Origin: Escherichia phage JLBYU27
DNA length: 16,547 nt
Direction: 5' to 3' (one strand)
Sequence record: OK272475.1
Positions 951-16,547 of this stretch are shown in pieces. Each line of letters begins with the position of its first letter. Position 1 is the first letter of the stretch. The translations under genes were made by a program, and so were the position numbers. The notes below the pieces were generated by a model. The model made no database searches. It saw only the letters and a program-made list of their open reading frames with translations, and was not told where the DNA came from.

Positions 951-1463
951 ATGATTAAAGTTAACTATGCCGATCTTAAAGCCGCTATGATGTGCGCCGC
1001 AACTAATGACGTGCGATACTATCTGAACGGTGTATTTTTCGACGAGAAAGGATTCATCGTGTCCACCGACGGACATCGCTTGTTCTGCGGGTCCGCGGTT
1101 GTTCCCGAAGGTGAAAGTAAAATAGTAGCAATTAAAGGCCGCTTACCTACTAAATTCGAATATTGCAACATAGACGGCACCTCCGCTGCGTTCTTTGATA
1201 GTAAAGACGTATTAATCGGTACCATACCCGTAGAGATCATAGACGGCCGATTCCCAGACTGGCGTAGATTTACGTCTTTCGACAGCGCTAAAGTGGAGGC
1301 TATAGGGTTTGCCGGGGTGTACCTGTCCGACGCCTGCAAAATTGCTAAATTGTTCGACCGTAAGTTTGATAGCTTAAAACTGGAATTTCAGGGAGTAGAC
1401 AAGGGGGCACGTGTGCTGTTCAAAGGCGGTGCCTTCCTTGTTATCATGCCGATGCGCTTGTAG
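951..1463 (+). CDS. truncated DNA polymerase III beta sliding clamp (DnaN) homolog, domain II plus shortened domain III (170 aa)
   Basis: ATG at 951 with GAGGAA 7-8 nt upstream. Protein contains DVRYYLNG, TDGHRL and DGRFPDWRR and ends in VIMPMRL, matching conserved E. coli DnaN motifs as recalled (DVRYYLNG, TDGHRL, DGRFPDYRR, C-terminal VVMPMRL). No equivalent of DnaN domain I. Opposite strand to all neighbours, with its own promoter and a terminator. Confidence 0.75.
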   Translation: MIKVNYADLKAAMMCAATNDVRYYLNGVFFDEKGFIVSTDGHRLFCGSAVVPEGESKIVAIKGRLPTKFEYCNIDGTSAAFFDSKDVLIGTIPVEIIDGRFPDWRRFTSFDSAKVEAIGFAGVYLSDACKIAKLFDRKFDSLKLEFQGVDKGARVLFKGGAFLVIMPMRL

Positions 1464-1468
1464 CTAAC

Positions 1469-1501
1469 GAAAAAGGGGCCATTACGGCCCCTTAATTATT
1501 T
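1469..1501. terminator. bidirectional rho-independent terminator between convergent genes
   Basis: Stem AAGGGGCC (1473-1480) / GGCCCCTT (1486-1493), loop ATTAC; A-run upstream and AATTATTT downstream on plus strand, so a U-tract follows the hairpin on either strand. Lies between the clamp-like gene stop (1463) and the Rz1-like gene stop (1482). Confidence 0.6.
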
Positions 1502-1712
1502 GCTGCAACTCCAACACCTGCGCCCTCAGCTTAGCACCGCACTCCATATTTTTAACATCAATCATCAAATCTTCGTCGGGGTCCGCAGACGGGCTATCGA
1601 ACTTGCACGGCGGTCGCAGTGCCGACTCCGTTAGCGGCATCAACGGCGCGTTGCTTGATCCGCACGCGCTCAGCATCAAAACTACAATCAGGGCGGTTAG
1701 GGCGCGTAACAT
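1482..1712 (-). CDS. putative o-spanin (Rz1-like outer-membrane lipoprotein, 76 aa)
   Basis: ATG at 1712 with AAGAGG RBS. N-terminal signal peptide with lipobox LSAC; proline-rich mature part containing Cys. The gene starts inside the upstream Rz-like ORF in another frame and extends beyond its stop (overlapped spanin architecture). Confidence 0.5.
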   Translation of the reverse strand: MLRALTALIVVLMLSACGSSNAPLMPLTESALRPPCKFDSPSADPDEDLMIDVKNMECGAKLRAQVLELQQIIKGP

Positions 1713-1923
1713 ATTTTACAACCTCTTTTGTGATAGTCCGGTATTCCACGTCGCGGGCTTGTTCTGCCTGCACGGAGCGCTCAATTACTTTAGTTTGCTG
1801 CCGTTGGGCTTCGGCTTGCGCTTCTTGCGCCGCCTCAGCCACTACGCCAGCGCGATAGGAGTCACCAAGCCAGAATCCTACCGCCAGACCTATAACCAGT
1901 CCAATAGCCGCATACTTAATCAC
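1594..1923 (-). CDS. putative i-spanin (Rz-like, N-terminal TM helix plus Ala/Gln/Glu-rich helical region)
   Basis: No in-frame ATG; GTG at 1923 (GGGGG RBS, overlaps the stop of the upstream gene) or TTG at 1953. N-terminal hydrophobic segment IKYAAIGLVIGLAVGFWLG followed by AEAAQEAQAEAQRQQ, one Cys near the C-terminus. Contains the embedded Rz1-like gene. Confidence 0.45.
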   Translation of the reverse strand: MIKYAAIGLVIGLAVGFWLGDSYRAGVVAEAAQEAQAEAQRQQTKVIERSVQAEQARDVEYRTITKEVVKYVTRPNRPDCSFDAERVRIKQRAVDAANGVGTATAVQVR

Positions 1924-3019
1924 GCCATAACCCCCGGTTTTTAAGCTGCGCAATAGTCATTAGTTCGCCTGAATCGGTGAACATCTTCGGGACTTTCACG
2001 CCGCGCATAATCTGGTCGGCGCGTTGCACCCCGTATAATTCTTCCAGGATATGGCGCGGCTGGCGCTGCACCCATGAGAAGAAATCAGTCTGCGCGTCGA
2101 CCTGCTCACTCAGCAATCGGCCCGCGTCAGCCTTCAGTGCCGGACGCTTACCACTGGGCCAATCTTCCATGCCTTTAACCTTCCACGTCTCCGTCGACCG
2201 GCAACAATAATGCAACTTGCCCGGACCAGCGCCATATTGTGACCCAGCCACCATTTTCCCGCCGCGCTTTCCTTTGGTGTCGGGAGTAACATCAACCGGA
2301 TAAAACAGGCGATCGCGTAGCTGGCACATGGGAGAAGTATGCGTGTCCAATGTAGATAACCATTGGCGACCTTCGAGAATATCGTCATTTGCTTTTACCA
2401 TTAGTTCGCGGGCGGTCGCCGCATAGTGGTTGACTGCCGACTTAACAACGCTTGAGATAGCTTGCGCACTACGACCGCCGAGCGCGCGCCTCACGTCCGC
2501 TATAATTTCCATAGTCGGCTTGCCCTGGATGAATCCGGCGCGCACCTGATTGCCGATCTGCGTTCTGGTCCATTCTGAAAGTGAATCGGGCCATTGCATC
2601 ATCGTATTACCCAGGAACGGGTTTTTCATCGCAGTCGCTGCGATCTGCGCACCTGTCACTACGCCCACCACCTCGACCGCAGGTACGGCGACCACCGGCT
2701 GGATCGCTGCCGTTAATGTGTCGGCGAGATAATCGGCCTCGGTGTCGGCAAACTCCTGAAGGCTTTCAGCCAACACCTTAAACTCGGTGCGCAGTTCCGT
2801 TTTGACGGTCTTGTCCAGTTGCGTCAACAGTGTGGTAAGTGCCTTGTTGCTCATGGTCTTTTTGCCATCAAGTAACTCGGTCAGCTTACCCAGTAGCGTG
2901 GGCCGGAACTTCTCCCACATAGCCAACACCCTCCGCGCCTGGTCATTGCTCAGGCGCTGGGTGAAGATGTGCCGGCGAATCATTCGATCCGCCATATATT
3001 GATTAATTGTCTTCGCCAT
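1916..3019 (-). CDS. phage head morphogenesis protein (Mu F / SPP1 gp7 family-like, 367 aa)
   Basis: ATG at 3019, overlaps the portal gene 3' end by 17 nt. Contains the family-typical block TLDTHTSPMCQLRDRL ... GKLHYCCRST (D.HT/S ... H.CCR). Position directly after the portal gene. Confidence 0.75.
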   Translation of the reverse strand: MAKTINQYMADRMIRRHIFTQRLSNDQARRVLAMWEKFRPTLLGKLTELLDGKKTMSNKALTTLLTQLDKTVKTELRTEFKVLAESLQEFADTEADYLADTLTAAIQPVVAVPAVEVVGVVTGAQIAATAMKNPFLGNTMMQWPDSLSEWTRTQIGNQVRAGFIQGKPTMEIIADVRRALGGRSAQAISSVVKSAVNHYAATARELMVKANDDILEGRQWLSTLDTHTSPMCQLRDRLFYPVDVTPDTKGKRGGKMVAGSQYGAGPGKLHYCCRSTETWKVKGMEDWPSGKRPALKADAGRLLSEQVDAQTDFFSWVQRQPRHILEELYGVQRADQIMRGVKVPKMFTDSGELMTIAQLKNRGLWRD

Positions 3020-4523
3020 TGTCCGCTACCTCGTCCGGGTCTTCGTCGGTAGATTCTACCGCATCCGGGGACATTTGAGGCAATGGATTCTGATTTCGCA
3101 ATTCGTCTTCCACCTGCTCAACGGTTTGCGAGTCATCAATGACGCCCTGGGCCATCATCCACTTTATAAAGTCCGCCAGACGGACCGTACCGGTCTGCAC
3201 ACCAGCCATCATTGCGGTCATAAGCTGTGCGTCAACCGTGATTTCGGTGTAGAACTTATTCAGCGTTACACGTTGATCTGCGGTGTCGCCAGTGAACAGC
3301 TTGACGATTTGCAGCGCACGGTTGAAAGCCTTCTCAACGTTACCGGCAATCAGCGACAGGATACTGTTATCAGTCTGCGCATCGTAGGCCGCTTCAGTTG
3401 CCGTCTTAGGTGCGGTCCCCTTCTCGACCAGGGCAGCGCCCAGTTTAGCCATTTGCAACTCGCGTCGCTCACACAGCGCAACTGACAGGTTTCTCTCCTC
3501 CGCCTGAAGCAGTTTAGCGTCCATGTTCTGGCCCAGGATAACGCCCTTAGTTGCCCCGAGCGCGATGCCTCCCTTCAGGTTTTTATCAGCCCATGATTGG
3601 GTAAGACCGGTTGCAATGAGAGTAGGTTGACCCACGATGTGCGCAATCTCGGCGACGTCCGCTTCGGCGTTGTAGTGCTTAATGTTGATGGACGCAATAT
3701 CCGCCAGCGGTGCGGCGTCCGGTGTCGCGTTGTTGTCCACCGCGCCACACCAGCAAAATGGCAGTTGAGTAAGCGCATTACCGGCGGCATCCACCAGTGG
3801 CACAAGGTCGGTGCGGGTGAATCCCCGCGGCAAGTCCATTTGCACCTCGGACGTGTCCGCGTTGTAATACCAGCGGCGACCGTGTGCCACACCGTTAATC
3901 ATGCGAAGCTCGGTCCAGATTGTAACTTTGTGGTTTGCGAAGTCGTCCGGGTCTTCGGTGCTGATTTCGTCCGTTTCCTTCAGCACAATTAGCGTATCGA
4001 CGCCGTGGGTCTGCCGCCAGTTGATGATCTGTTCTGCCGTGTACAGGCGTATAAGCGGGCGGTGTGACGCCATTTCAGCGGCTGTCTGCGGCACTACGTT
4101 ACCCAGTTCATCAAAGTTAGCCTGGCGGTCGTAGTCCACCATAAAGCCAGCGCGGCCCGATTGCAGCACTTCCGACATAGCGCCGCGCAGGAGTTGCGCC
4201 AGTGGCATCCCGCTGCCGTCTACGTCATCAATCAGGTCAGCCATTGCCCCGGAAAGGTCCATACTCACCGGTTTGGCGAAGGCGACACCTAACAGTGCAT
4301 TCAGTGTGCGGGCGGTGGCGTTCAGGAAGACAGCACGTTGCTTATATGCCTTATAGCGCGCACGCGATTTCGGGTCAGTGGTGTCGCCGCTGGCTGGGTG
4401 TGGCAGGTACAAGGGGCCGCACGCCTTCACGGCGCGCTCCCCTGCTACACAATCACGGATCATTTTCCACTCTGGCGAGATGCGCGCATAGAGCGGGTGC
4501 TGGTTGTCAACGTTAACGGTCAT
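3003..4523 (-). CDS. phage portal protein (506 aa)
   Basis: ATG at 4523 with AAGGAA RBS 8 nt upstream. 506 aa with a strongly acidic C-terminal tail (DEDPDEVADNGEDN). Sits between terminase large subunit and head morphogenesis protein. Confidence 0.7.
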   Translation of the reverse strand: MTVNVDNQHPLYARISPEWKMIRDCVAGERAVKACGPLYLPHPASGDTTDPKSRARYKAYKQRAVFLNATARTLNALLGVAFAKPVSMDLSGAMADLIDDVDGSGMPLAQLLRGAMSEVLQSGRAGFMVDYDRQANFDELGNVVPQTAAEMASHRPLIRLYTAEQIINWRQTHGVDTLIVLKETDEISTEDPDDFANHKVTIWTELRMINGVAHGRRWYYNADTSEVQMDLPRGFTRTDLVPLVDAAGNALTQLPFCWCGAVDNNATPDAAPLADIASINIKHYNAEADVAEIAHIVGQPTLIATGLTQSWADKNLKGGIALGATKGVILGQNMDAKLLQAEERNLSVALCERRELQMAKLGAALVEKGTAPKTATEAAYDAQTDNSILSLIAGNVEKAFNRALQIVKLFTGDTADQRVTLNKFYTEITVDAQLMTAMMAGVQTGTVRLADFIKWMMAQGVIDDSQTVEQVEDELRNQNPLPQMSPDAVESTDEDPDEVADNGEDN

Positions 4524-4534
4524 GGTTGGTTTCC

Positions 4535-5920
4535 TTAGTAGAAGTCTACGGTTGGAACAACGGCGATCGGTCGAATCACAGGGAACAGGTGCGCAACAGG
4601 ATAGCCCGCGGCGTCGTTCATGTGGTCCACACCGGCAGTTTTATCCGGCTCGCCTTTCTTCAGGTCATAAACCTGCTGTTCCAGACATTTCGCTAGTGTA
4701 GGGCATTTATCCAGGTTGACAAAATACTGGCGCACGCCCTTCGAGTTGCACATCATCGTATTCATCGCGATCAATCGGTCTTTCACTGGCGGGTTAACGC
4801 TGTCATATTCCACATTGAAGCCAGCATCTTCCAGTTGCGCGATATCGGACGACGACGCGTTGACCGTTTTGCGGGATTTTCCGCTGCTATCCGGGTAAAC
4901 GACTACCCTACCGGCGGCACAATGTTCGGGATAGCGCTCCTCGATCGCCTCAATCATAGCCGGGGTGTCAAACAGGTCCACGAATTCATCCACGGCGTGA
5001 ATCTCGTCGCGGAACTCCTTGTTCTCGGTGGTACGCTGCCGTCTTACATACACGACCGCCGCCATTTTCGTGACGTTAAAGTCCATACCGATAATCAGCG
5101 TGTCGTCCGGCTGCACTTCTTCGGTGCTGGCGTTCTCCTCGCGATTAAACATCTTGTACACCGCGCCCGACGTAAGGTTAACAAACAGGCCGTTCAGGTA
5201 CGCATCAATCAGGTTAGCCGGGTACTGACTGCGAAGCGTGTCGATAAAGTCTGCTGGTAAATGGTGGTTGTCTGTGGTCTTCGCCCGGATCAAGCGTTTC
5301 TGGCTGTCCTTCTCCACCTCGAAAATTTGGTACATCGCCCGGTAGCCTTCAGGCGTTGACACGATGACGAACTGGCGGACGAAGCCCGCACGCAGACGAC
5401 CTAGCAGTTTGTGATATGCCGCCAGCGCGACGTCTTGTTTCGTGGTGTCGAACTCGTCGGCAACAATCCACGCGGCGTTGACCCCGATCAGGCGGGTATA
5501 GTTCTCCATTGATTCACAGATCACGCGGGTCCATTTGCCTTTCACCAGAACGCTATAGATCTTGTCCTGCTTGTTGAACTTCCACCGGAAGCCAGCCTCG
5601 TCGAAAGCCTTTTCCAATTCCGGATACATGATTTTAACCAGGAGTGGAATAGTCGGTTCGGTAACGATGCCGTCATGACCTGGGTTCAGTGTGAGAAGCT
5701 GGATTACCTTACGGGCTGCGACCCATGACTTGCCGCCGCCGAAGCCGGAGCACAGGCCGAGGATTTTAGTCTTCGTGTCCCGTAGTAGTTCGACCTGGTG
5801 CGGTAGGCAATCAGGCTGGTAAAGACGCACCGCCTGCGCAACGCGCGTAGGGCGTGGCGGTCGGTTGCGCTTTGCGATCGCGCGCTCCAGTGCGCGGTGT
5901 TCTGCCGCATAGTTACGCAT
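4535..5920 (-). CDS. terL: terminase large subunit (461 aa)
   Basis: Walker A-like LGLCSGFGGGKS and Walker B-like WIVADEFD in the N-terminal ATPase region; C-terminal nuclease-like region (LIIGMDFN ...). Start ATG at 5920 overlaps the terS stop (TAATG). Confidence 0.9.
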   Translation of the reverse strand: MRNYAAEHRALERAIAKRNRPPRPTRVAQAVRLYQPDCLPHQVELLRDTKTKILGLCSGFGGGKSWVAARKVIQLLTLNPGHDGIVTEPTIPLLVKIMYPELEKAFDEAGFRWKFNKQDKIYSVLVKGKWTRVICESMENYTRLIGVNAAWIVADEFDTTKQDVALAAYHKLLGRLRAGFVRQFVIVSTPEGYRAMYQIFEVEKDSQKRLIRAKTTDNHHLPADFIDTLRSQYPANLIDAYLNGLFVNLTSGAVYKMFNREENASTEEVQPDDTLIIGMDFNVTKMAAVVYVRRQRTTENKEFRDEIHAVDEFVDLFDTPAMIEAIEERYPEHCAAGRVVVYPDSSGKSRKTVNASSSDIAQLEDAGFNVEYDSVNPPVKDRLIAMNTMMCNSKGVRQYFVNLDKCPTLAKCLEQQVYDLKKGEPDKTAGVDHMNDAAGYPVAHLFPVIRPIAVVPTVDFY

Positions 5921-6492
5921 TAATCACCCTGACCTTTGCCGGTAGGTTCCACAACGACGTCGCCGTTATCATCTTCGTCGTCATCCAGCGGTACATCGTC
6001 GCGGACGCCGTGGTTTGCTTTAAGCAGGAATGTAGCGAAGCCTGCCGCGATGGTCACGCCGCCAGCTTCCATCAGGAAGGTTTTCTGCAGTTCCATAGCG
6101 TCCGCCATCGCCTCGGCGAACTCCTCATGTGCGCGCGCCCAGCGATACAGGCAAGCTACGCCCACACCGATTTCCGCGGCAAATCGTCCGAAGGTTGGCA
6201 TTTTGTTGCGAGGGATTACTTGCGCAGCGCCTTTATCGGAGTAGTTGACCTGCCAGGCGTCGGCGTCGGCAAAATAGCGGCGAAGCTGGTCGCAGTAAAC
6301 GGATCTGTAGTCAGTAGGGCGCCCACATTTGCCACCTTTACGGCGCTTGCCATACTCGATCTCGGGTCCAAGATTGGTGTGTTCTGTTTGCTCGCCTGGT
6401 TTACGGCGCGGGGTTACTGCTACTCGTCCGTCCAGTTTGGCGCGTCGGCCCTTAACTTTGATTTCTGCCATGATATAAGCCCTTTTGTTCAT
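5920..6492 (-). CDS. terS: terminase small subunit (about 190 aa)
   Basis: Translationally coupled to terL. Contains the HTH-like block TFGRFAAEIGVGVACLYRWARAHEEFAEAMADAMELQKTFL typical of small terminase subunits. Start taken as ATG 6492; ATG 6471 (AAGGG RBS) is an alternative; the ORF-track start at 6570 is a non-ATG codon and less likely. Confidence 0.7.
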   Translation of the reverse strand: MNKRAYIMAEIKVKGRRAKLDGRVAVTPRRKPGEQTEHTNLGPEIEYGKRRKGGKCGRPTDYRSVYCDQLRRYFADADAWQVNYSDKGAAQVIPRNKMPTFGRFAAEIGVGVACLYRWARAHEEFAEAMADAMELQKTFLMEAGGVTIAAGFATFLLKANHGVRDDVPLDDDEDDNGDVVVEPTGKGQGD

Positions 6493-6541
6493 ATGCGCCG
6501 ACCATCGGCAACATAGGAGACGGCCCTGCCATCTAATGGGG

Positions 6542-6575
6542 ATTATAACAGGCGCAAAAAAGCCCACCAAATCGG
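6542..6575 (-). promoter_or_regulatory. candidate promoter for terS overlapping the upstream terminator
   Basis: Perfect -10 TATAAT on minus strand (complement of 6542-6547), 17 bp spacer, weak -35 TTGGTG. Confidence 0.3.
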
Positions 6576-6580
6576 CAGGC
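6556..6580 (-). terminator. putative rho-independent terminator after the metallophosphoesterase gene
   Basis: On minus strand: GCCUGCC-GAUUU-GGUGGGC followed by UUUUUU (stem includes two G.U pairs). Lies 22 nt after the stop at 6602. Confidence 0.4.
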
Positions 6581-6601
6581 TGGGAGGATTACGGGTTGCC
6601 G

Positions 6602-7744
6602 TTACTTCAACATTTCCGGGCTAATGGTTAAGCGCGCTACTTCGCCGTAGTTGGCGCTATAGGTAATGACGTTGGCACTACGACCGGACATCCAACCACC
6701 GCGGCTGGCGTAGGCGTCTTTCGCTGCGAGGGTCCGGTGCTGTTCAACAATCATGTTACGGGATTCTACAATCTTCTGGTGGTGCAAGTGGCCTACGTGC
6801 GCGTAGCTGTACTCACTGGCCCCGAAAGCCTGTCTGAATTTAGAAATCATGACGGTTTCGATAGCGTCAAAGCGCGCTTTATGCCCGTGGTGGAAAAATA
6901 GCGTGGTCTTGCCGTGCTGCACCATTTTGTAGACGTCCGGGGACGTATCCACATCGACGCGCGGCTCGTTCTCGTACAGCGTGTTGAACATCTCAGCAAG
7001 CCAAATCATGCCCGACTCATCATGATTCCCCTGGACGATTAGCAGTTTGACTTTGTGGTGTTTTTGCAGGGCAAGTTCGACGACGTTGCGCACCATGCGA
7101 ATCATGTATCGGACCAGTTTCTGGTATCGGGTGTCCGCGTCCAGTATGTGACCACTTGCCGGAGTGACAGCATCGAGGCTATCAAAGTGGGCCATATCAC
7201 CGAGGATATTAATTACGGCAGTGCCTGCGTCCGGGGCGCGGGCGAAGGCTTCGACAAACCAGCGGTAGAACAGGTCTTCGGCTATCGCCATATCCCAGTC
7301 TTCGCCAGTCTCCTCGCCCCATGCCAACATGCCCAGGTGGAAGTCTGACACGGTGTACAGGTTGAGTAAGTCGAGCGCCTGGATCGGTACTGGCGGGGCG
7401 TTTACTGGCGCTGCCGGTGTGATTTCGCTGTTCATACCCTCGACAACAGCGCGCATAGCTTCGAGTTGGCGCTCCTTGTCCTGCTCAGTGATAACCCACG
7501 ACATGACCTCTTCGCCATTGCCGCGCACCAGGGCCGATACGCGCTTAACGCCGAAGCCATCGGCAACGCGCTGGCGGATTACGGCGTCGTTGCCGTGCCC
7601 AATTCCTTTTTTCGATAGGCGGGCTTTCCGCATGTAGACGTTTCGGAGGGACAAACCGTACTTCTTAGAAATCTCTTTCGATGTAGCGCCGGATTGTAAT
7701 TCAGCAATCAATTGCTCGTCTGTGATTTTAGTTTGCGGGTGCAT
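6602..7744 (-). CDS. HTH domain fused to a calcineurin-like metallophosphoesterase (380 aa)
   Basis: ATG at 7744 with AGGAAG RBS 6 nt upstream. N-terminal HTH-like segment (TSKEISKKYGLSLRNVYMRKARLSKKG). Metallophosphatase signature motifs in order: DFHLG, GDMAHF, GNHDE, HHGHK, GHLHH. Own promoter and flanking terminators. Confidence 0.75.
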   Translation of the reverse strand: MHPQTKITDEQLIAELQSGATSKEISKKYGLSLRNVYMRKARLSKKGIGHGNDAVIRQRVADGFGVKRVSALVRGNGEEVMSWVITEQDKERQLEAMRAVVEGMNSEITPAAPVNAPPVPIQALDLLNLYTVSDFHLGMLAWGEETGEDWDMAIAEDLFYRWFVEAFARAPDAGTAVINILGDMAHFDSLDAVTPASGHILDADTRYQKLVRYMIRMVRNVVELALQKHHKVKLLIVQGNHDESGMIWLAEMFNTLYENEPRVDVDTSPDVYKMVQHGKTTLFFHHGHKARFDAIETVMISKFRQAFGASEYSYAHVGHLHHQKIVESRNMIVEQHRTLAAKDAYASRGGWMSGRSANVITYSANYGEVARLTISPEMLK

Positions 7745-7769
7745 AATTACTTCCTGATTATGGGACCGG

Positions 7770-7805
7770 GGACAATATATCACGGGACTTATCGAGGCGG
7801 GCAAT
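7770..7805 (-). promoter_or_regulatory. extended -10 promoter-like element for the metallophosphoesterase gene
   Basis: Minus strand reads CGTGATATATT (TG-n-TATATT) flanked by GTCCCG / GTCCCCGG motifs; possible weak -35 TTGCCC 19 bp upstream. Confidence 0.35.
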
Positions 7806-7830
7806 AAAAAGCCCGGATAATACCGGGCTT
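7802..7830 (-). terminator. rho-independent terminator ending the lysis operon
   Basis: 8 bp stem AAGCCCGG / CCGGGCTT with 6 nt loop; on minus strand followed by TTTTTATT. Located 7 nt after the stop of the 55-aa ORF. Confidence 0.7.
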
Positions 7831-7836
7831 GATTGT

Positions 7837-8004
7837 TTACGCTGCAGGACCAGATTCTTCCTGCGGTGGTGGGCTTGGCAGCTTCGCATCGAAGACCCCA
7901 GCGTGGCTGATAGTGTCCGCGATGATAGCGCGTGCCCCAGGATCTTCGGTTTTAGCCAGTGCGGCAAGCGCGTCCGCATTATGATCAAGAATACTTTTCA
8001 ACAT
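7837..8004 (-). CDS. hypothetical small protein (55 aa) downstream of endolysin
   Basis: ATG at 8004 with GAGGGGA RBS about 7 nt upstream. No TM segment or lipobox, so not a spanin. The longer ORF-track form (to 8241) would overlap the endolysin gene and is not favoured. Confidence 0.4.
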   Translation of the reverse strand: MLKSILDHNADALAALAKTEDPGARAIIADTISHAGVFDAKLPSPPPQEESGPAA

Positions 8005-8020: not shown

Positions 8021-8512
8021 TTATGCTGCGTTACGACCGATTCGCTCGGCAACGTCCCACTGCTTACCGTCAAACAACGCCTGTCTGCCGATTGCACGAC
8101 GGACAAGCCCCTTAAGCACTGCCCCGCCTTGCTTGCGGAATTGTGGCAGTGTAGCCCGGACTTTTGCCCAGTCACCCAGGCGGACAGCATCGTCGAAGTC
8201 ACCGGCGACGTCGTCCGGCATGATCGGACCAGGGCCTGCATTGATGACCAGATCCACCAGCGCGTCGAATTGCGCTTGATTAATGCTCGGATGTGCGTAT
8301 TTGTTCACCCAGTCCTCGGCATACGCCACATCGCGCTTGAGCAGTGCCAGCGCTTCCTCGCGGGTAATGCTTCTAGGCGGATTAGTGCCAGTATGACCAT
8401 AACCCCAGGTGTACAGGCCGCGGGCCTGCTCTTTCTTGGTCGCGAAATATGGCACCGGGCTGAAAGCCTCCCAGGCTGCCGTAAATCGTAGACCGTTATC
8501 ACTGAATCGCAT
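8021..8512 (-). CDS. endolysin, phage lysozyme (163 aa)
   Basis: ATG at 8512. Lysozyme-like N-terminal block (LYTWGYGHTG) and C-terminal RRAIGRQALF resembling lambdoid phage lysozymes. Immediately follows holin-like genes. Confidence 0.8.
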   Translation of the reverse strand: MRFSDNGLRFTAAWEAFSPVPYFATKKEQARGLYTWGYGHTGTNPPRSITREEALALLKRDVAYAEDWVNKYAHPSINQAQFDALVDLVINAGPGPIMPDDVAGDFDDAVRLGDWAKVRATLPQFRKQGGAVLKGLVRRAIGRQALFDGKQWDVAERIGRNAA

Positions 8513-8744
8513 GTTTTACCCCATTCAAAACAGCATTACGCAGGGTGCGCAATGCAAACAGCCAGATTAACGCGGTCCAGGTGGTATCAGACACGTCTCC
8601 TGTTTGCAGCAACCCGATAAAACAGACCATTGCCGTTAACAGATACAGCACCCGACCGAAAATGCCATCCTGGACGGACGGCGCATACACGTTAAACAGG
8701 GACGAAGCCCCTATGATAACAAACAACAGGACGGAGATAATCAT
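8499..8744 (-). CDS. small membrane protein in lysis cassette (holin-like / antiholin candidate, 81 aa)
   Basis: ATG at 8744 overlaps the holin stop (ATGA); 2-3 predicted hydrophobic helices; overlaps the endolysin start by 14 nt. Confidence 0.5.
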   Translation of the reverse strand: MIISVLLFVIIGASSLFNVYAPSVQDGIFGRVLYLLTAMVCFIGLLQTGDVSDTTWTALIWLFALRTLRNAVLNGVKHAIQ

Positions 8745-9031
8745 TTTGCACCCCCCGGAAGTCGGAACGACGCAATAGTCCCCCGGATCCGGTCGGCGAT
8801 TGGCATCCAGAAGATGGCAGTTACGAAGCCCAAACCGGCGACAGTGCGCTCGCCAGACAAACCAGACCACTCGGCGATAGCTGGCGCACCAAATATGGCA
8901 CACAGGAAGCCAACCACGATATATAAAACGAAGTTCAACGGCCCTTTCGTTGCCTCGCCATGAATGCGTGCGCCTACGAAGCCACCAGCAAGACACGCAA
9001 TGGCGAATAACCACTCGTTTAGCTTATCCAT
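8741..9031 (-). CDS. holin (96 aa, three hydrophobic segments)
   Basis: ATG at 9031. Three hydrophobic stretches (WLFAIACLAGGFVGA, FVLYIVVGFLCAIFGAPAIA, GLGFVTAIFWMPIA) and a charged C-terminus. First gene of the holin / endolysin cluster. Confidence 0.7.
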   Translation of the reverse strand: MDKLNEWLFAIACLAGGFVGARIHGEATKGPLNFVLYIVVGFLCAIFGAPAIAEWSGLSGERTVAGLGFVTAIFWMPIADRIRGTIASFRLPGGAK

Positions 9032-10740: not shown

Positions 10741-10945
10741 ATTAATCACGCGTATGAAAAAGTTGATCGCTATCTGCTGAAACTGCAAACTGCATTTTTC
10801 ACTTTCCATTCTGCATCGCGCATTGGTTGCCGAGTTCATCGCCGACCGCAATTTGCATCATGTTGCCGTGGATTATGCAATCCCGGATTTTATGCAGTCT
10901 CAGACGAGGGGGGTGACAGACCCCCCGTCTAGTCTGAAAGACTGG

Positions 10946-11210
10946 GGTGCTGTCCCGCTGTCCCGATCGGCTAAACCCCGCGGCAGCACTGGCGGGGACA
11001 GGGTGCTGTCCCGCTTTGTCCCGCCCCTGGTCTGTCCCGCTTTTTGTCCCGCTTAGTTTATGCACGAAAACAGAATAGATATTCACATTTTGGGGGTGGG
11101 ACAGATCGGGACAGCACCCCTGTCCCGTTTTTAATTTATGCAATGTTGGTGGGTAAATATGCAGTTTTTAGAGGTGCGGGATAGAACGGGACAAAACGGG
11201 ACGTCCCGCC
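10946..11210. repeat. iteron-like array of at least 12 copies of TGTCCCGC / GCGGGACA in both orientations
   Basis: Forward copies at about 10951, 10959, 11007, 11017, 11033, 11045, 11121; inverted copies at about 10993, 11097, 11106, 11176, 11186; a perfect 12 bp palindrome CGGGACGTCCCG at 11197-11208. Longer unit GGTGCTGTCCCGC recurs three times. Interspersed AT-rich TTTATGCA motifs. One hairpin CGGGACAG-caccc-CTGTCCCG is followed by TTTTT. Confidence 0.8.
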
Positions 11211-11222
11211 TGTACCGCTTCG

Positions 11223-11547
11223 TTATGCGGGGTTCTGCCGCGCCATTTCATCCAGCGCAACGCGTTCCATTAGCTTGATATCTTTAAACGCACGTTGCGC
11301 GTTTTCGATGCCGTGCATCTTAAATAGCCATTCCAGTACGCCGTAGTCGATGCCGTATGCGCCGCCGAATCCGGTACGCCATTGCGTGGCGCAATCGGTG
11401 AAGACTGCGACTATCTTCGCATTGTCGGGCCATATTGCAACAGGCGGACAAACATCTTCGGGGGCCGCACCCCATAAACTTGCGGCTAAATCTTCGGAGG
11501 GTGGCGGCGGGCCATAAAAGCGTCGCGCCGCCTCAATTAGTTTTTTT
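11223..11547 (-). CDS. -1 frameshift extension of the tail assembly chaperone (GT-like T domain, about 107 codons)
   Basis: A7 slippery run (plus-strand T7 at 11541-11547) lies immediately before the G-gene stop; by hand translation the -1 frame stays open from there to a TAA at 11225..11223 (KKLIEAARRFYGPPPPSEDLAASLWGAAPEDV ... KLMERVALDEMARQNPA). Confidence 0.5.
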
Positions 11548-11899
11548 CACGCAGGCCCATCAGTTCGAGATAGTACGACGTGTGGAACACACCGAACGCG
11601 CGAGGGTAGTTAACCACCAGGCGGCGGACGTTCTCCGCGTTAAATTCATCTGGCAGATTCCAGCCTTCAGCGACGTGCATGATGGCCTCGACCATAACGT
11701 TAAAGCCTTCCGGGTCGTTGTCGTCGTATTCCGACAGCTTGCGCTCCGTGTCCTGCATGGTCTGCGAAAATTCGTCGATCGGGCGGTGGCGTACGGTAAA
11801 CGTCATTTTGCCTGGTTCGTTCTCACCAGGGCGCGGGATCTCAATCGGCAGCTTAAAGGTAGGCTTAGGGTCAAGTGTAAAGAGTGGTGCTTTAGCCAT
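11537..11899 (-). CDS. tail assembly chaperone (lambda G-like, 120 aa)
   Basis: ATG at 11899 with GGAG RBS; acidic small protein immediately downstream of the major tail gene; ends ...GLREKN with the A7 slippery site in the last codons. Confidence 0.6.
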   Translation of the reverse strand: MAKAPLFTLDPKPTFKLPIEIPRPGENEPGKMTFTVRHRPIDEFSQTMQDTERKLSEYDDNDPEGFNVMVEAIMHVAEGWNLPDEFNAENVRRLVVNYPRAFGVFHTSYYLELMGLREKN

Positions 11900-11913
11900 T
11901 GTAGTATTCTCCA

Positions 11914-11938
11914 ATAAAAAAGGGGCCGTGCTGGCCCC
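11914..11938 (-). terminator. rho-independent terminator after the major tail gene
   Basis: Stem GGGGCC / GGCCCC with loop of 5 nt; on minus strand followed by TTTTTTATT. Sits between the major tail stop and the chaperone RBS. Confidence 0.65.
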
Positions 11939-11968: not shown

Positions 11969-12694
11969 TCAAGACAGCGCCTCGACCAAGTCCTTACGGT
12001 AAATAACCATATCGGACTGCATGGTCAGCGTGGACTCCACCGTCTCCACGTTGTTTACTTCAGACGATGGGATCTTCCGGAAAGACACCTTAGCCGGGTA
12101 AATGCGGATCTCACCTTTGCCGCTTGCCGCTGCCGGGTTAGTGAACTTAATCACAGTGGTTTTCTGTGTGTCGTCCAGGTCTTCCAGAATCGGGCGGATC
12201 GGGTCTTCTTCGTCGTGGGTGAAGGTGTAAGTCTGGACCAACGGGTTTTTCGTGGTGTTCAGACTGATCGCGGTATTCACCTGCAACGGCTGGAAGGTAG
12301 TAGTCTGCTGGTCGCCACCAGACACGGCGACGTTAGTGATATACGGGAAGTCGACAAAGCTCGACACCTTCACCACCTCACCCGGTGTTCCTGTGCTGAA
12401 AGCGCCGGTAGGGTATTTGGTTACGTCTTTAGTATCGAAGCGCGCCAGTGTAACGTCGTTAGTCGCCACTTTACCCACGATGAACGCGCGGTTCAGCGCA
12501 CGGACCCACGGGGTTTTAGTGAACATAACCACGTCACCAACTTTCAGGCCATGAGAAGCCGCGCAGGTGATAACGCAACCTTTCGTAAGACCAGAGATCG
12601 ACGCGGCGGCGTTGGTAGCTGCCGTAACGGCGATACCTTCGCTTAATACGGACCCAATCTGCACGCTGGATCCATTCGGTAACTGGTAGCCCAA
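11969..12694 (-). CDS. major tail protein (lambda V-position, 241 aa)
   Basis: TTG start at 12694 preceded by AGGAGG with 5 nt spacing; an in-frame stop lies just upstream so no ATG alternative exists. Ser/Thr/Val-rich protein followed by a terminator and the G/GT chaperone pair. Confidence 0.6.
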   Translation of the reverse strand: MGYQLPNGSSVQIGSVLSEGIAVTAATNAAASISGLTKGCVITCAASHGLKVGDVVMFTKTPWVRALNRAFIVGKVATNDVTLARFDTKDVTKYPTGAFSTGTPGEVVKVSSFVDFPYITNVAVSGGDQQTTTFQPLQVNTAISLNTTKNPLVQTYTFTHDEEDPIRPILEDLDDTQKTTVIKFTNPAAASGKGEIRIYPAKVSFRKIPSSEVNNVETVESTLTMQSDMVIYRKDLVEALS

Positions 12695-12809: not shown

Positions 12810-13403
12810 ATGCGTAAAGGCATTCTTTTCGAAGGCATGACATTTAGAGGCGTTACTTTGTTGCGTAAAGGGCCAGGCCTTAAGTGGTTCTGTTCTTGCC
12901 CCGTATGCGGAAGCGAGACACTTCGCACTAACGGCGCACTATTGGATTTTATGCGAGGCGAAACACTGCGCTGGGTATGTACTTGTTTCGGCAAGAAATC
13001 TCGACACGGAATGACGGGGACGCCAACAATGATTACATGGGAAGGTATGATTCAGCGATGCCACAACCCCAATGCGACTAAATACGAAATATATGGCGGT
13101 CGAGGGATTACGGTGTGTGACCGCTGGCGAGTATTCAAGAACTTCCTGGAAGATATGGGCTTGCGGCCCGCCGGAGCAACCCTTGATAGAATCGACAGTA
13201 ACGGCAACTATGAGCCAGGTAATTGCCGGTGGGCATCCCAAAAAGACCAAACCGAAAACACTCGTAGGATTGTCCGAGTTATATATGAGGGGCGTGAATA
13301 TTGTCTTAAGGAAGCGTGCAAGGCGGCGGGCGTGAATTATGACACTATTAGAAAGAAATGGAAAAAAAGCGGGGAAATGTTCCACCGCTTTGAGATGATT
13401 TAA
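12810..13403 (+). CDS. HNH/AP2-family homing-endonuclease-like DNA-binding protein with N-terminal Cys-rich zinc-ribbon-like segment (197 aa)
   Basis: Contains the W..M..RC.NPN...Y..YGGRGI.VCDRW..F..F..DMG ... LDRID..GNYEP.NCRWA motif block that I recall from phage HNH/AP2-type homing endonuclease-like proteins; N-terminal CSCPVCG ... CTCFG. Opposite strand to the flanking tail genes; its stop overlaps the stop of the convergent U-like gene (TTAA). Confidence 0.55.
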   Translation: MRKGILFEGMTFRGVTLLRKGPGLKWFCSCPVCGSETLRTNGALLDFMRGETLRWVCTCFGKKSRHGMTGTPTMITWEGMIQRCHNPNATKYEIYGGRGITVCDRWRVFKNFLEDMGLRPAGATLDRIDSNGNYEPGNCRWASQKDQTENTRRIVRVIYEGREYCLKEACKAAGVNYDTIRKKWKKSGEMFHRFEMI

Positions 13404-13822
13404 GCGCAACAGGTGTAGGGGACTGTAACCACGATGCGGGCGCGATCAACGTCCTCAACCACTGAACTGGTGTATGGCGCGTCCTGAAGCTGGAATGCAG
13501 CGCCGGAAATCTTTACCGTCAACCACTTATCCGACGTAGCGATGGCGTCCGCCAGTTCGCTCGCGTACTGTGTACCCGTGCCTGCAGGGAACACCACGGC
13601 AACCTGATATACGCCTGCATAGATTCTCCCCTTTTGCTGGAGGCCCACAAACTGGGTCGGGGCCGGTAGCAGGTACGGCTCCAGGTAGACACCACTCCCG
13701 TTTGCGTGGTCCCCTTGCACGTTCTCCCAGTTAACCTTGATCGGCCGCGGGCTTGTGCTTAGGCTCGCCGATAACTCTTCTACCACGCTGTTAAGCGCTT
13801 TGCGGATTGCGGTATTGCTCAT
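13400..13822 (-). CDS. putative tail terminator / tail completion protein (lambda U-position, 140 aa)
   Basis: ATG at 13822 overlapping the upstream stop (TAATG); size and position immediately upstream of the major tail gene. Assignment by synteny only. Confidence 0.4.
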   Translation of the reverse strand: MSNTAIRKALNSVVEELSASLSTSPRPIKVNWENVQGDHANGSGVYLEPYLLPAPTQFVGLQQKGRIYAGVYQVAVVFPAGTGTQYASELADAIATSDKWLTVKISGAAFQLQDAPYTSSVVEDVDRARIVVTVPYTCCA

Positions 13823-15452: not shown

Positions 15453-16547
15453 TCAGGACGTTGTGGTCGCAGTCAGCGTAACCAGTACGCCAGCCGTTTC
15501 CTTGATGTTACGGGTCGGCACGGTCTGCGCAGTCTGTGTCTTACGACGGCCTTTAGTGTCGCTATCGCTGCCAACATCCTGAACGGTTGCCGGTGCGTTA
15601 TCTACCTGGCCCTGGTCCAGTTCCCAGTTTGCGGAAGTGGTAATATCGCTCAGTTTGAACGAGCACACACCTTCGATCGGGGTACGGGCGTCTGCCTTCA
15701 GACGGTAGCCTTTAACCGCCACGTTGAAGTCGAACTCGCCCTGCCACCAGCGCTCGATGTTCTCGTTACCGCCTTTTTCCTGCGCCAGCATATCGAGGCC
15801 GTTGGTGGTAACTGCAACCGCGCCAGGGACCAGACCCAGCATGTTACCGGCACCCATAGCACCGGCAGCGGCATCGGAGATAATGAAACGACGGCCCAGG
15901 CCATCGCCCATTACCTGAAGATCGCCGATTGCGAATACCTGCTCGGCAGACGGGAGCGCCTGGTATGCAATGAAGTTTGCCCAGGTAACGCCGTCCATAA
16001 ACCAGGATTTAATCAAAGACGCCTGATCGCCGAACTTAGAAGCCGCCAGCGGGAAGTCCGCCAGGGTCGGGAAGGTACGACCGCCAACGCCGTCAACGCG
16101 CGCCGGTTGGGTGTATTTTGCCGCTGGGTTGCTCTCGATCGCCGCTTTACTTGCACCGATACCGGCCTTCAGGTAATGCAGCATAATCGCTTGAGTAGCC
16201 TGTGCCGCAATCTCAGCCGCAACGCTGTTAACGTTGGTTTCGATCTTAGCCATCATAGCCTTAGTGATTGCTACCGGACCCACTTTCGCGGACAGGTTGA
16301 CGGAGTTGGTCAGCATACGCGCCAGCACTTTTGCGGTCGCCGGAGTACCGACAGGGGCATAGGCGTTACGGTCGGTAACGAGGTTGGCGATCAATCCTAC
16401 GGACATTTTTTCTACAACATCCTTCAGCACTTCACCAGTGCCGAGAACAACAGCGCCGTTAGCGGCAGCGTTGAACACGTTCAGGTTATCGGGGATCATT
16501 TGCGTAACCGCGGTGACGAGTTTACGCTGGAACACTGTTAAAGACAT
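15453..16547 (-). CDS. putative major capsid protein (364 aa)
   Basis: ATG exactly at the window edge (16547..16545). Ala/Gly/Val-rich structural-type protein followed by a strong terminator and then head-tail joining genes, the usual position of a major capsid gene. Not recognized at family level. Confidence 0.45.
   Translation of the reverse strand: MSLTVFQRKLVTAVTQMIPDNLNVFNAAANGAVVLGTGEVLKDVVEKMSVGLIANLVTDRNAYAPVGTPATAKVLARMLTNSVNLSAKVGPVAITKAMMAKIETNVNSVAAEIAAQATQAIMLHYLKAGIGASKAAIESNPAAKYTQPARVDGVGGRTFPTLADFPLAASKFGDQASLIKSWFMDGVTWANFIAYQALPSAEQVFAIGDLQVMGDGLGRRFIISDAAAGAMGAGNMLGLVPGAVAVTTNGLDMLAQEKGGNENIERWWQGEFDFNVAVKGYRLKADARTPIEGVCSFKLSDITTSANWELDQGQVDNAPATVQDVGSDSDTKGRRKTQTAQTVPTRNIKETAGVLVTLTATTTS

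Follow-up and report, generated by a model that had tools for sequence, protein, structure and literature searches.

The locus examined here raises the question of why two overlapping genes with the look of a lysis component should lie among the head genes of Escherichia phage JLBYU27 (OK272475.1), far from the holin–endolysin cassette, and whether they are a lysis component at all. A preliminary description of this DNA had read them as an overlapped Rz/Rz1-like spanin pair displaced from its cassette, and had offered a superinfection-exclusion lipoprotein as the alternative. Our analysis of the whole 16,547-nt stretch (hereafter the window) indicates that 1482..1923 on the minus strand is very probably an i-spanin/o-spanin pair in overlapped arrangement, from the EP23-SO-1 subfamily of the SpaninDB “Jersey” family, in a Dhillonvirus-type siphophage; PHROG, SpaninDB and the annotation of relatives all support the spanin reading of the displaced pair. 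As the same pair and its odd position have already been catalogued and published for close relatives, we regard it as an ordinary member of a known family.

The two genes and their predicted products

Both open reading frames lie on the minus strand at the positions first proposed for them, and we refer to them by the names that go with the above assignment. Their features are the following:

1594..1923, minus strand: i-spanin gene; 109 aa, GTG start, TAG stop at 1594-1596; predicted type II inner-membrane protein
1931..1935, minus strand: GGGGG Shine-Dalgarno, 7 nt 5′ of the i-spanin GTG; identical Shine-Dalgarno string in SpaninDB, agcttaaaaaccGGGGGttatggc
1864..1920, minus strand: predicted i-spanin transmembrane segment (Kyte-Doolittle), residues 2-20, IKYAAIGLVIGLAVGFWLG
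1482..1712, minus strand: o-spanin gene, +1 frame relative to the i-spanin; ATG start, 76-aa precursor, predicted 60-aa mature lipoprotein
1722..1726, minus strand: AGAGG Shine-Dalgarno, 9 nt 5′ of the o-spanin ATG, within the conserved i-spanin codons K-E-V-V-K-Y
1662..1673, minus strand: lipobox L14-S15-A16-C17; Cys17 is the predicted lipidated residue 1 of the mature o-spanin, with Gly at +2
1594..1712, minus strand: dual-frame stretch of 119 nt, comprising the last 39 i-spanin codons and the first 39 o-spanin codons

The longest open reading frame in the i-spanin frame (1594..1953, minus strand, 119 aa) begins with TTG. We rejected this TTG at 1953 and took the GTG at 1923 as the start, because the GTG is kept in 18/18 distinct Dhillonvirus sequences, whereas the TTG is absent from several of these relatives; SpaninDB likewise assigns the i-spanins of phages EP23 and HK578 the identical GTG and GGGGG Shine-Dalgarno. 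The preliminary description was therefore correct that the membrane-anchored protein lacks an ATG start. By hydropathy and rule-based tests, on which all our membrane-helix and lipoprotein calls are based, its only 19-residue windows with a Kyte-Doolittle mean above 1.6 are N-terminal, starting at residues 1-2 and reaching a maximum of 1.9; hydrophobicity is confined to residues 1-20 and the other 89 residues are polar, giving the single N-terminal transmembrane segment expected of an i-spanin. The 89-residue predicted periplasmic part contains 16.9% A, 10.1% Q, 9.0% E and 12.4% R, so that both the anchor and the Ala/Gln/Glu-rich character claimed for this protein are borne out. A single-sequence AlphaFold2 model, of low confidence (mean pLDDT 61.6), has helices at residues 5-72 and 84-97 joined by a linker at 73-83, and the SpaninDB Pepcoil table lists 0 coiled-coil segments in the EP23 and HK578 i-spanins; hence, any lambda-style coiled-coil mechanism of the 109-aa i-spanin would be hypothetical.

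The o-spanin ATG sits inside the i-spanin codons K70-Y71-V72 (AAA TAT GTT), at 0.64 of the i-spanin length (offset 211 nt). Its signal, MLRALTALIVVLMLSA followed by C, passes a PROSITE-type lipobox rule, with Cys17, Arg3, an uncharged h-region and Gly at +2; this Gly is not an inner-membrane retention residue, and the predicted signal is thus that of an outer-membrane lipoprotein. The lipobox reads L(S/T)AC or MSAC, again with Gly at +2, in all the Dhillonvirus relatives (18 distinct sequences), such that the LSAC lipobox noticed earlier stands; the “Pro-rich mature part” is only moderately true, with Pro making up 7 of the 60 mature residues (11.7%). Hydropathy found no hydrophobic window outside residues 1-25 of the o-spanin, which accordingly does not have the profile of a unimolecular spanin. 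As the preliminary description had seen, the gene continues beyond the end of the i-spanin gene, in fact by 112 nt, and this is the overlapped rather than the embedded arrangement.

Both products match PHROG “Rz-like spanin” families: the i-spanin phrog_2536 (E 3e-36), and the o-spanin phrog_5672 (E 4e-26) and phrog_1267 (E 7e-12). In Pfam searches taken to E up to 1, the sole match of the i-spanin was DUF7904 (E 0.052) and the o-spanin had none; neither protein has a significant Pfam or NCBIfam family, and the weak NCBIfam matches of the o-spanin N-terminus are all to lipoprotein signal peptides. Because these scans gave no significant match, we reject membership in the lambda Rz/Rz1 Pfam families. 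Hence, the label “Rz/Rz1-like” is apt for architecture and role but not for sequence family.

Relatives and family membership

The window comes from a Dhillonvirus: its identity to the DNA of phages EP23, TheodorHerzl and SO-1 is 92-95%. Family membership was settled by a tblastn search against 50,697 phage records together with the curated SpaninDB tables. The latter list EP23, HK578, JL1, SSL-2009a and SO-1 in the “Jersey” overlapped i-/o-spanin families (Kongari et al. 2018, PMC6139136). Relative to EP23, the i-spanin is 94.4% and the o-spanin 98.7% identical over 98-100% of length, which places both proteins within the clustering rule of that paper, at least 40% identity over at least 40% of length to a family member; across the EP23, HK578 and TheodorHerzl pairs protein identity is 94-99%. 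The comparison with curated spanin families that the preliminary description had called for thus returned a listed EP23-type pair, and the GenBank/RefSeq records of relatives label it i-spanin/o-spanin. The sequence features by which Kongari et al. 2018 define a two-component spanin, namely i-spanin topology, o-spanin lipobox, gene arrangement and periplasmic Cys, are found here.

Alignments of 8-9 divergent homologues from several genera show no change at V68, K70, Y71, P75 and C80 of the i-spanin or at C36, C58, D46 and E47 of the o-spanin. Cys80 of the former and Cys36/Cys58 of the latter are preserved out to the Vibrio and Enterobacter phage homologues, a pattern that fits the disulfide rule of Kongari et al. 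(PMC6139136); the periplasmic Cys for homotypic intermolecular disulfides are present and the bonds themselves are predicted.

Placement in the head module is conserved in Dhillonvirus, Jerseyvirus and Kagunavirus, and is therefore not peculiar to JLBYU27; indeed, the displaced spanin position has already been noted in print for relatives. On the earlier query whether relatives carry their spanins next to the endolysin, these three genera do not, whereas Vibrio phage pYD38-A and Enterobacter phage Mulvp2 do. In pYD38-A the homologous overlapped pair directly follows endolysin-holin, and the complete endolysin-holin-spanin cassette comes after the portal and head-morphogenesis genes with three opposite-strand ORFs between; in Mulvp2 the homologous overlapped pair is right after a lysozyme-like gene.

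Genomic setting and the distant lysis cassette

Immediately flanking the pair are:

1916..3019, minus strand: head-morphogenesis gene (SPP1 gp7 / Mu F-like); phrog_241 head morphogenesis, E 6e-115
1473..1493, terminator-like on both strands: G+C-rich hairpin with a 9-pair stem (6 GC pairs), followed by TTTCGTT

The head-morphogenesis stop and the i-spanin start share 8 nt (GTGATTAA), and this overlap suggests that the i-spanin may be translationally coupled to the head-morphogenesis gene. At the other end, the o-spanin stop TAA (1482-1484) forms the loop of the hairpin, for which a terminator is annotated at the matching position in phage WFI. Consensus hairpin scans predict that the terS-terL-portal-head-morphogenesis unit ends with the pair as its final cistrons. 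The spanin pair and the clamp-like gene at 951..1463 on the plus strand are convergent, as previously described, and share the hairpin, which would end both. The opposite-strand gene downstream of the pair varies between isolates.

The lysis cassette lies elsewhere in the window:

8741..9031, minus strand: holin 1; phrog_2359 holin, E 3e-31; annotated holin in TheodorHerzl; 6.8 kb from the spanins
8499..8744, minus strand: holin 2; 81 aa; phrog_2508 holin, E 8e-28
8021..8512, minus strand: endolysin; T4-type phage lysozyme; phrog_7, E 1e-35; Pfam Phage_lysozyme, E 2.5e-20

The endolysin has no N-terminal hydrophobic signal. These three proteins are presumably the functional partners of the spanins in lysis. 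Examination by lipobox, hydropathy and PHROG found no membrane-targeted spanin candidate within 8021..9031 and none elsewhere in the window besides the pair, upholding both the earlier statement that the cassette is devoid of spanins and the displacement of the pair by ~6 kb into the structural module. Two further ORFs near the endolysin were considered and rejected as spanins: a 55-aa ORF just past it (7837..8004), which has neither a hydrophobic segment nor a lipobox, and a 76-aa ORF (7758..7988), which has neither a lipobox nor a PHROG match.

Alternative readings of the locus

A skeptical reading would accept the i-frame protein alone and dismiss the lipoprotein ORF as an unexpressed product of chance in an alternative frame, in line with the many GenBank records that annotate just one of the two genes or label them “hypothetical”, and with metagenome-contig gene calls in which a single ORF of the two appears. 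We consider this extremely improbable. Upon synonymous recoding of the i-spanin gene, such a lipobox ORF arose in only 5/3000 cases, none of the 14 other minus-strand genes in the window (12.7 kb) has one in an alternative frame, and besides the o-spanin the entire window contains no credible lipobox ORF. Its ATG and 76-aa length, like the lipobox, are kept in 18/18 distinct Dhillonvirus sequences, in which both frames are intact despite nucleotide divergence of up to 23%. The variable sites in these 18 sequences fall at codon positions 1/2/3 in the numbers 22/11/46 in the part read only in the i frame and 13/5/25 in the part read only in the o frame: third-position variation tracks the i frame in the stretch before the overlap and the o frame in the stretch after it, and each frame, where read alone, is under purifying selection. 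The AGAGG 9 nt before the ATG and the occurrence of the o-spanin in other genera at 24-46% identity, with its Cys invariant, likewise speak against a chance ORF.

The proposal that the two genes make up some other envelope system, for instance a Cor/Llp-like superinfection-exclusion or receptor-masking lipoprotein with an inner-membrane partner, draws on its location among head genes, 6 kb from the holin–endolysin cassette, on the missing Pfam match to lambda Rz/Rz1, and on the fact that experimental spanin work has been done essentially entirely on lambda Rz/Rz1 (Kongari et al. 2018, PMC6139136). In the literature searched we found no experiment on a member of the Jersey-type family, and the lytic role of the family, including that of the JLBYU27 pair, is hence one that we infer. 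Nevertheless, this proposal is very unlikely: the significant PHROG matches are all to spanins, and even at E up to 1 only spanin or unknown-function families appear, with no exclusion family among them; the pYD38-A and Mulvp2 homologues adjoin endolysin or holin genes; and a transmembrane protein paired with a +1-frame outer-membrane lipoprotein, each with conserved periplasmic Cys, is the architecture by which spanins are defined. Moreover, spanin annotation in the complete, manually annotated genomes of the relatives is limited to homologues of the 1482..1923 pair, without which they would have zero annotated spanins. It could also be argued that the pair is a spanin with an additional morphogenetic or regulatory role, such as coupling head assembly to envelope events, given the overlap of the i-spanin start with the head-morphogenesis stop and the position shared by Dhillonvirus, Jerseyvirus and Kagunavirus. 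This too we consider very improbable, for the spanins of T4 are unlinked as well, late co-expression suffices as an explanation, and neither protein resembles a virion component in PHROG; further, because pYD38-A carries the whole lysis cassette after its head-morphogenesis genes, the placement of the pair suggests plain inheritance of an old gene order.

Proposed role in lysis and its implications

If the pair is the spanin of JLBYU27, the established lambda Rz/Rz1 model allows its action to be pictured as follows. Both proteins would be made late, alongside the packaging and head proteins, with the i-spanin inserted N-in/C-out in the inner membrane and the o-spanin lipidated, cleaved by signal peptidase II and carried by Lol transport to the inner leaflet of the outer membrane. 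Their periplasmic domains would then bind each other, forming disulfide-linked complexes that span the periplasm through the peptidoglycan mesh. Upon holin triggering, removal of the peptidoglycan by the lysozyme-type endolysin would free these complexes, which could then fuse the inner and outer membranes, thereby eliminating the last barrier to virion release. Since all of these are late genes, linkage of the spanins to the holin–endolysin cassette is unnecessary.

More tentatively, the slot following the head-morphogenesis genes might be the ancestral site of a complete lysis cassette, as in pYD38-A, from which the Dhillonvirus and Guernseyvirinae lineages lost the holin–endolysin part and re-acquired it elsewhere; we see this as possible, though rather doubtful. 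Were it so, the spanins would have been left stranded and coupled to the head-morphogenesis gene, with their dosage set by the packaging/head operon instead of the lysis operon, an evolutionary and regulatory nuance and not a new type of system.

The main value of the assignment lies in correct annotation, with little significance beyond that. The pair would complete the lysis gene set of JLBYU27 as two holins, an endolysin and a spanin, and illustrates that spanin genes can sit outside the lysis cassette. Many deposited records still overlook or mis-start overlapped o-spanin genes and i-spanins that lack an ATG, and in the engineering or therapeutic use of Dhillonvirus phages, awareness that the head-morphogenesis and scaffold genes flank the spanins would help avoid accidental disruption of the latter.

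Comparison with known spanin systems

The closest counterparts, EP23p05/06, HK578_005/006, SO-1 gp5/6 and TheodorHerzl gp05/06, are the same gene pair and likewise follow the head-morphogenesis gene. For EP23 and HK578, SpaninDB records what is seen in JLBYU27, namely an i-spanin of 109 aa, an o-spanin of 76 aa in the +1 frame, a 119-nt overlap, and the same GTG and Shine-Dalgarno; only a few amino-acid substitutions set JLBYU27 apart from the EP23-SO-1 subfamily. Further afield, the Jerseyvirus and Kagunavirus pairs (Salmonella phages Jersey and SETP3; coliphage K1ind1) belong to the same family with the same overlapped architecture. In alignments with JLBYU27 their o-spanins are about 46% and their i-spanins about 31-32% identical (37-42% in local tblastn), and they share the conserved Cys and the VKYV...P..C motif. 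They, too, lie between head-morphogenesis/decoration genes and the scaffold gene, apart from the holin and endolysin. They differ in their i-spanin, which is longer at about 128 aa, contains poly-Q stretches and has a linker with two predicted beta strands, in a lipobox that reads LNGC or LSAC, and, in Jersey, in an overlap of 155 nt as against 119 nt in JLBYU27.

Lambda Rz/Rz1 is of the same functional class, being a type II inner-membrane protein with a +1-frame outer-membrane lipoprotein, periplasmic Cys and, as expected of the JLBYU27 pair, action after holin and endolysin (PMC6139136). However, lambda Rz1 is wholly embedded in Rz within the lysis cassette, whereas in JLBYU27 the final 112 nt of the o-spanin gene lie beyond the end of the i-spanin gene, and the cassette is 6 kb away from the pair. 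At 109 aa the JLBYU27 i-spanin is also shorter than lambda Rz, which has 153 aa. Unlike their lambda equivalents, the i-spanins of EP23 and HK578, its closest SpaninDB members, are without a Pepcoil coiled coil, and the JLBYU27-type o-spanin is less Pro-rich than Rz1 and half helical by prediction. T4 PseT.3/PseT.2 parallels the JLBYU27 pair as a two-component spanin located away from the holin and endolysin genes, but its architecture is separated, not overlapped, and its sequence family unrelated. Finally, the unimolecular spanin gp11 of T1 performs the same final step of lysis and bears an outer-membrane lipoprotein signal, but combines it with a C-terminal membrane helix in one polypeptide, whereas in JLBYU27 the membrane anchor belongs to the other protein of the pair.

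An overlapped gene pair in the head module

The preliminary description of this DNA had proposed a displaced, overlapped Rz/Rz1-like spanin pair at 1482-1953, formed by a membrane-anchored, Ala/Gln/Glu-rich protein lacking an ATG start and a lipoprotein gene that lies in another frame and passes the stop of the first. Our analysis recovered both components, namely the inner-membrane partner (i-spanin) and the outer-membrane lipoprotein partner (o-spanin):

1594..1953, minus strand: i-spanin ORF in its longest form, TTG start
1482..1712, minus strand: o-spanin ORF, ATG start, 76 aa, beginning MLRALTALIVVLMLSACGSS

Because the TTG at 1953 is missing from several relatives, we place the i-spanin start at the conserved GTG at 1923, which yields a 109-aa protein beginning MIKYAAIGLVIGLAVGFWLGDSYR. 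The o-spanin starts 211 nt inside this ORF and is therefore in the +1 frame; the two overlap by 119 nt (1594-1712), with the o-spanin running 112 nt beyond the i-spanin stop. Shine-Dalgarno sequences are found 7 nt upstream of the GTG (GGGGG) and 9 nt upstream of the o-spanin ATG (AGAGG). The i-spanin has a single hydrophobic segment at its extreme N-terminus (Kyte-Doolittle 19-residue mean 1.9), followed by a polar remainder of 89 residues in which Ala, Gln, Glu and Arg are abundant and which has one Cys, at position 80. The o-spanin displays a lipoprotein-type signal peptide, with Arg3, an uncharged hydrophobic core and the lipobox L-S-A-C (Cys17) followed by Gly, and a mature part of 60 residues featuring 7 Pro and two more Cys (C36 and C58).

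Selection on both reading frames

An ORF overlapping another gene might be an unexpressed product of chance. A scan with a PROSITE-type lipobox rule, applied to every possible start in all six frames of the window, matched six start positions in four ORFs, among which only 1482..1712 combines an ATG start with a convincing h-region. A lipobox ORF is absent from the alternative frames of 14 other minus-strand genes (12.7 kb), and synonymous recoding of the i-spanin gene gave rise to one in only 5 of 3000 trials. We also compared the homologous 442 nt of 18 distinct Dhillonvirus sequences (77-98% identical): in all 18 the i frame opens with the GTG (102 or 109 aa), the o frame opens with the ATG and encodes 76 aa, and Gly comes directly after the lipobox, which reads L(S/T)AC or MSAC. 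Counted by codon position (1/2/3), variable sites number 22/11/46 where only the i-spanin is encoded and, by o-frame positions, 13/5/25 where only the o-spanin is. Within the overlap, the variation is distributed across two phases, and the phase joining i-position 2 to o-position 1 is nearly frozen (5/39 sites variable). This codon-position pattern indicates that purifying selection acts on both frames. Thus, the conservation, together with the recoding test, excludes a chance, unexpressed o-spanin ORF.

Genomic position and transcription units

The pair lies at the end of a series of minus-strand genes (names of terS, terL and portal following the annotation of relatives):

8741..9031, minus strand: holin (phrog_2359)
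8499..8744, minus strand: second holin (phrog_2508)
8021..8512, minus strand: endolysin, T4-lysozyme-type
6602..7804, minus strand: exonuclease/phosphoesterase-like gene
5920..6570, minus strand: terS
4535..5920, minus strand: terL
3003..4523, minus strand: portal
1916..3019, minus strand: head-morphogenesis gene
1482..1923, minus strand: spanin pair (this analysis)

As had been noticed earlier, the lysis cassette itself is devoid of spanin candidates: the lipobox scan and ORF checks of this region found neither a lipobox ORF nor a small membrane-anchored candidate, and the cassette annotation of Escherichia phage TheodorHerzl likewise comprises only holin, holin and endolysin. The 55-aa ORF directly after the endolysin (7837..8004, minus strand) was rejected as a spanin, being hydrophilic. 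This position is a second variable slot, occupied in some relatives by a 137-aa Big_2-domain protein (compared in contigs L026-L029).

The stop of the head-morphogenesis gene and the i-spanin GTG overlap (GTGATTAA). At the other end of the pair, a hairpin at 1473-1493, with a G+C-rich stem of 9 bp and a T run behind it, has the o-spanin stop codon as its loop and also ends the convergent clamp-like gene. Similar hairpins lie 3′ of the endolysin (7809-7830) and of the exonuclease gene (6561-6581). From consensus scans, the likeliest transcription units would be holin-holin-endolysin, the exonuclease gene, and terS through the spanins.

The interval separating the spanins from the scaffold gene (851-1481) is a variable cargo site. 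In the window its occupant is an opposite-strand gene of 170 aa (951..1463), whose product matches a clamp domain weakly (Pfam DNA_pol3_beta_2, E 6e-5, below cut-off), is labelled ‘RusA-like resolvase’ in PHROG and is inconsistently annotated in relatives. In other isolates (contigs L026-L030) the site encodes a 254-aa Nmad5-domain protein together with a small ORF, or else has a same-strand ORF of 110 aa.

Displaced spanins across lineages

Jerseyvirus SETP3 and Kagunavirus K1ind1 also have a homologous pair at this place in the head module. In Jerseyvirus SeF1 the spanins are Gp_009 and Gp_010 (phrog_2536, phrog_5672), whereas the holins are Gp_063 and Gp_064 and the endolysin Gp_065 (PMC9409062); in Dhillonvirus P78 the holins are ORF31 and ORF32, the endolysin ORF33 and the spanin ORF40 (PMC12677095). 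Unlinked spanins have their textbook precedent in T4. By these gene orders, the displaced position is not unusual for the lineage.

A search, suggested in the preliminary description, for relatives with the pair next to the endolysin found it in two distant ones. In Vibrio phage pYD38-A, endolysin and holin are directly followed by an i-spanin homologue, and in Enterobacter phage Mulvp2 such a homologue, unannotated in the record, follows a lysozyme-like gene. Both harbor an unannotated +1-frame lipoprotein ORF with the lipobox ISGC that aligns with the o-spanin, both Cys being kept; the unannotated spanin genes lie at 5092-5337 in pYD38-A and at about 5000-5451 in Mulvp2. Across these genera the i-spanin retains V68, K70, Y71, P75 and C80; since its K-Y-V codons (AAA TAT GTT) contain the o-spanin ATG, the two frames share constraint there.

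Window topology and tail module

In relatives, the window end (16547, where the capsid gene 15453..16547, minus strand, has its ATG) runs on into position 1. The window thus behaves as a circle, holding about 16.5 kb of a 44-kb Dhillonvirus genome. At about 10890-11053 it passes from one genome region to another within a direct repeat of some 165-175 bp. The complete contigs L026 and L027 have two copies of this repeat (about 84% identical), one downstream of the tail-chaperone gene, the other upstream of the small genes preceding the holins. Public Logan contigs of 15.8-16.6 kb finish at or near these repeats, and two of them, L028 (16,581 bp) and L029 (15,810 bp), cover the same arc. Most likely the repeat closed an arc during assembly, which makes the window an artefact and not a genuine 16.5-kb genome; a true deletion by recombination is the less likely reading.

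The intergenic region 10950-11210 displays a dense GGGACAG/CTGTCCC(GC) heptamer array in both orientations. All 8 GGGACAG matches fall in 10950-11126, against 1.4 expected, and none of 200 shuffles reaches 8. The array, which overlaps the sequence duplicated in complete genomes (about 10890-11053), looks like putative protein-binding sites of a regulator or iteron-like kind.

Between the major tail gene (11969..12694) and the tail-terminator gene (13400..13822), where EP23 has only a 61-nt gap, the opposite strand carries an inserted free-standing HNH endonuclease gene (12810-13403, plus strand; phrog_3377, E 5e-47); an exact-sequence look-up in a large protein collection did not return its product. 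The tail assembly chaperone gene (11537..11914, minus strand), labelled ‘tail length tape measure protein’ in PHROG and several records, has a slippery heptamer A_AAA_AAC (11540-11546) immediately before its stop, and the -1 frame stays open for 105 more codons, to a stop at 11223-11225; 11223-11914 is a predicted lambda G/GT-type programmed frameshift.

Function and relationship to known spanins

Our analysis established the topology signals, dual coding, conserved Cys residues and late-gene co-orientation of the pair, as well as its linkage to lysis genes in distant relatives. By analogy with the lambda Rz/Rz1 model summarised in PMC6139136, the i-spanin would reside in the inner membrane (N-in/C-out), and the o-spanin would be lipidated and then sorted to the outer membrane, consistent with the Gly at +2, which is no retention signal. 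Their periplasmic domains could form disulfide-linked complexes across the periplasm that, once the holins have triggered and the endolysin has broken down the peptidoglycan, would fuse both membranes. A literature search found no published experiment on the Jersey-type spanin family. The alternative raised in the preliminary description, a superinfection-exclusion lipoprotein system, found no support: the PHROG results include no such family, and the neighborhoods in distant relatives point to lysis. The displaced overlapped pair is confirmed as an observation and its interpretation as spanins is supported.

The i protein matches phrog_2536 (E 3e-36) and the o protein phrog_5672 (E 4e-26) and phrog_1267 (E 7e-12), all ‘Rz-like spanin’ families. 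Pfam and NCBIfam scans of both proteins gave no significant match; by these scans, the pair has no detectable sequence relationship to lambda Rz/Rz1. The first 6 kb of the window are 92-95% identical to the Dhillonvirus genomes Shigella phage EP23, Escherichia phage TheodorHerzl and Sodalis phage SO-1, and a nucleotide search of the window start matched 158 records. Annotation of the pair is inconsistent across records: RefSeq labels both EP23p05 and EP23p06 ‘Rz-like spanin’, and the BASEL phages TheodorHerzl and Oekolampad, whose authors report annotating spanins with the SpaninDataBase tool, have ‘i-spanin’ and ‘o-spanin’. In many GenBank records one or both genes are a ‘hypothetical protein’; the metagenome gene calls (L026-L030) list the o-spanin and skip the overlapping i-spanin; and EP23p06 (6318-6476) is given too late a start (159 nt instead of 231), which removes its signal peptide.

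Existing catalogues and annotations already include the pair, and published work has noted its displaced position. Among 528 curated two-component spanins, the overlapped ‘Jersey’ i-/o-spanin families include EP23, HK578, JL1, SSL-2009a and SO-1, along with Jersey, SETP3 and K1-type phages (Kongari et al. 2018, PMC6139136). The ‘EP23 to SO-1’ subfamily is described as having a shorter i-spanin with two predicted helices and a linker with one beta strand, and conserved o-spanin Cys residues; the supplementary tables give no Pepcoil coiled coil for the EP23 and HK578 i-spanins (PMC6139136). A low-confidence single-sequence AlphaFold2 model of our i-spanin (mean pLDDT 61.6) agrees in outline with this helix-linker-helix description (helix 5-72, linker 73-83 with Cys80, helix 84-97, disordered tail). 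Comparison with these curated families bears out the assignment: in the EP23 and HK578 entries (PMC6139136), as in the window pair, the Shine-Dalgarno string and the start are identical, the i-spanin has 109 aa and the o-spanin 76, of which 60 form the mature part, and the o-spanin gene lies in the +1 frame and overlaps its partner by 119 nt, an overlap fraction of 0.36.
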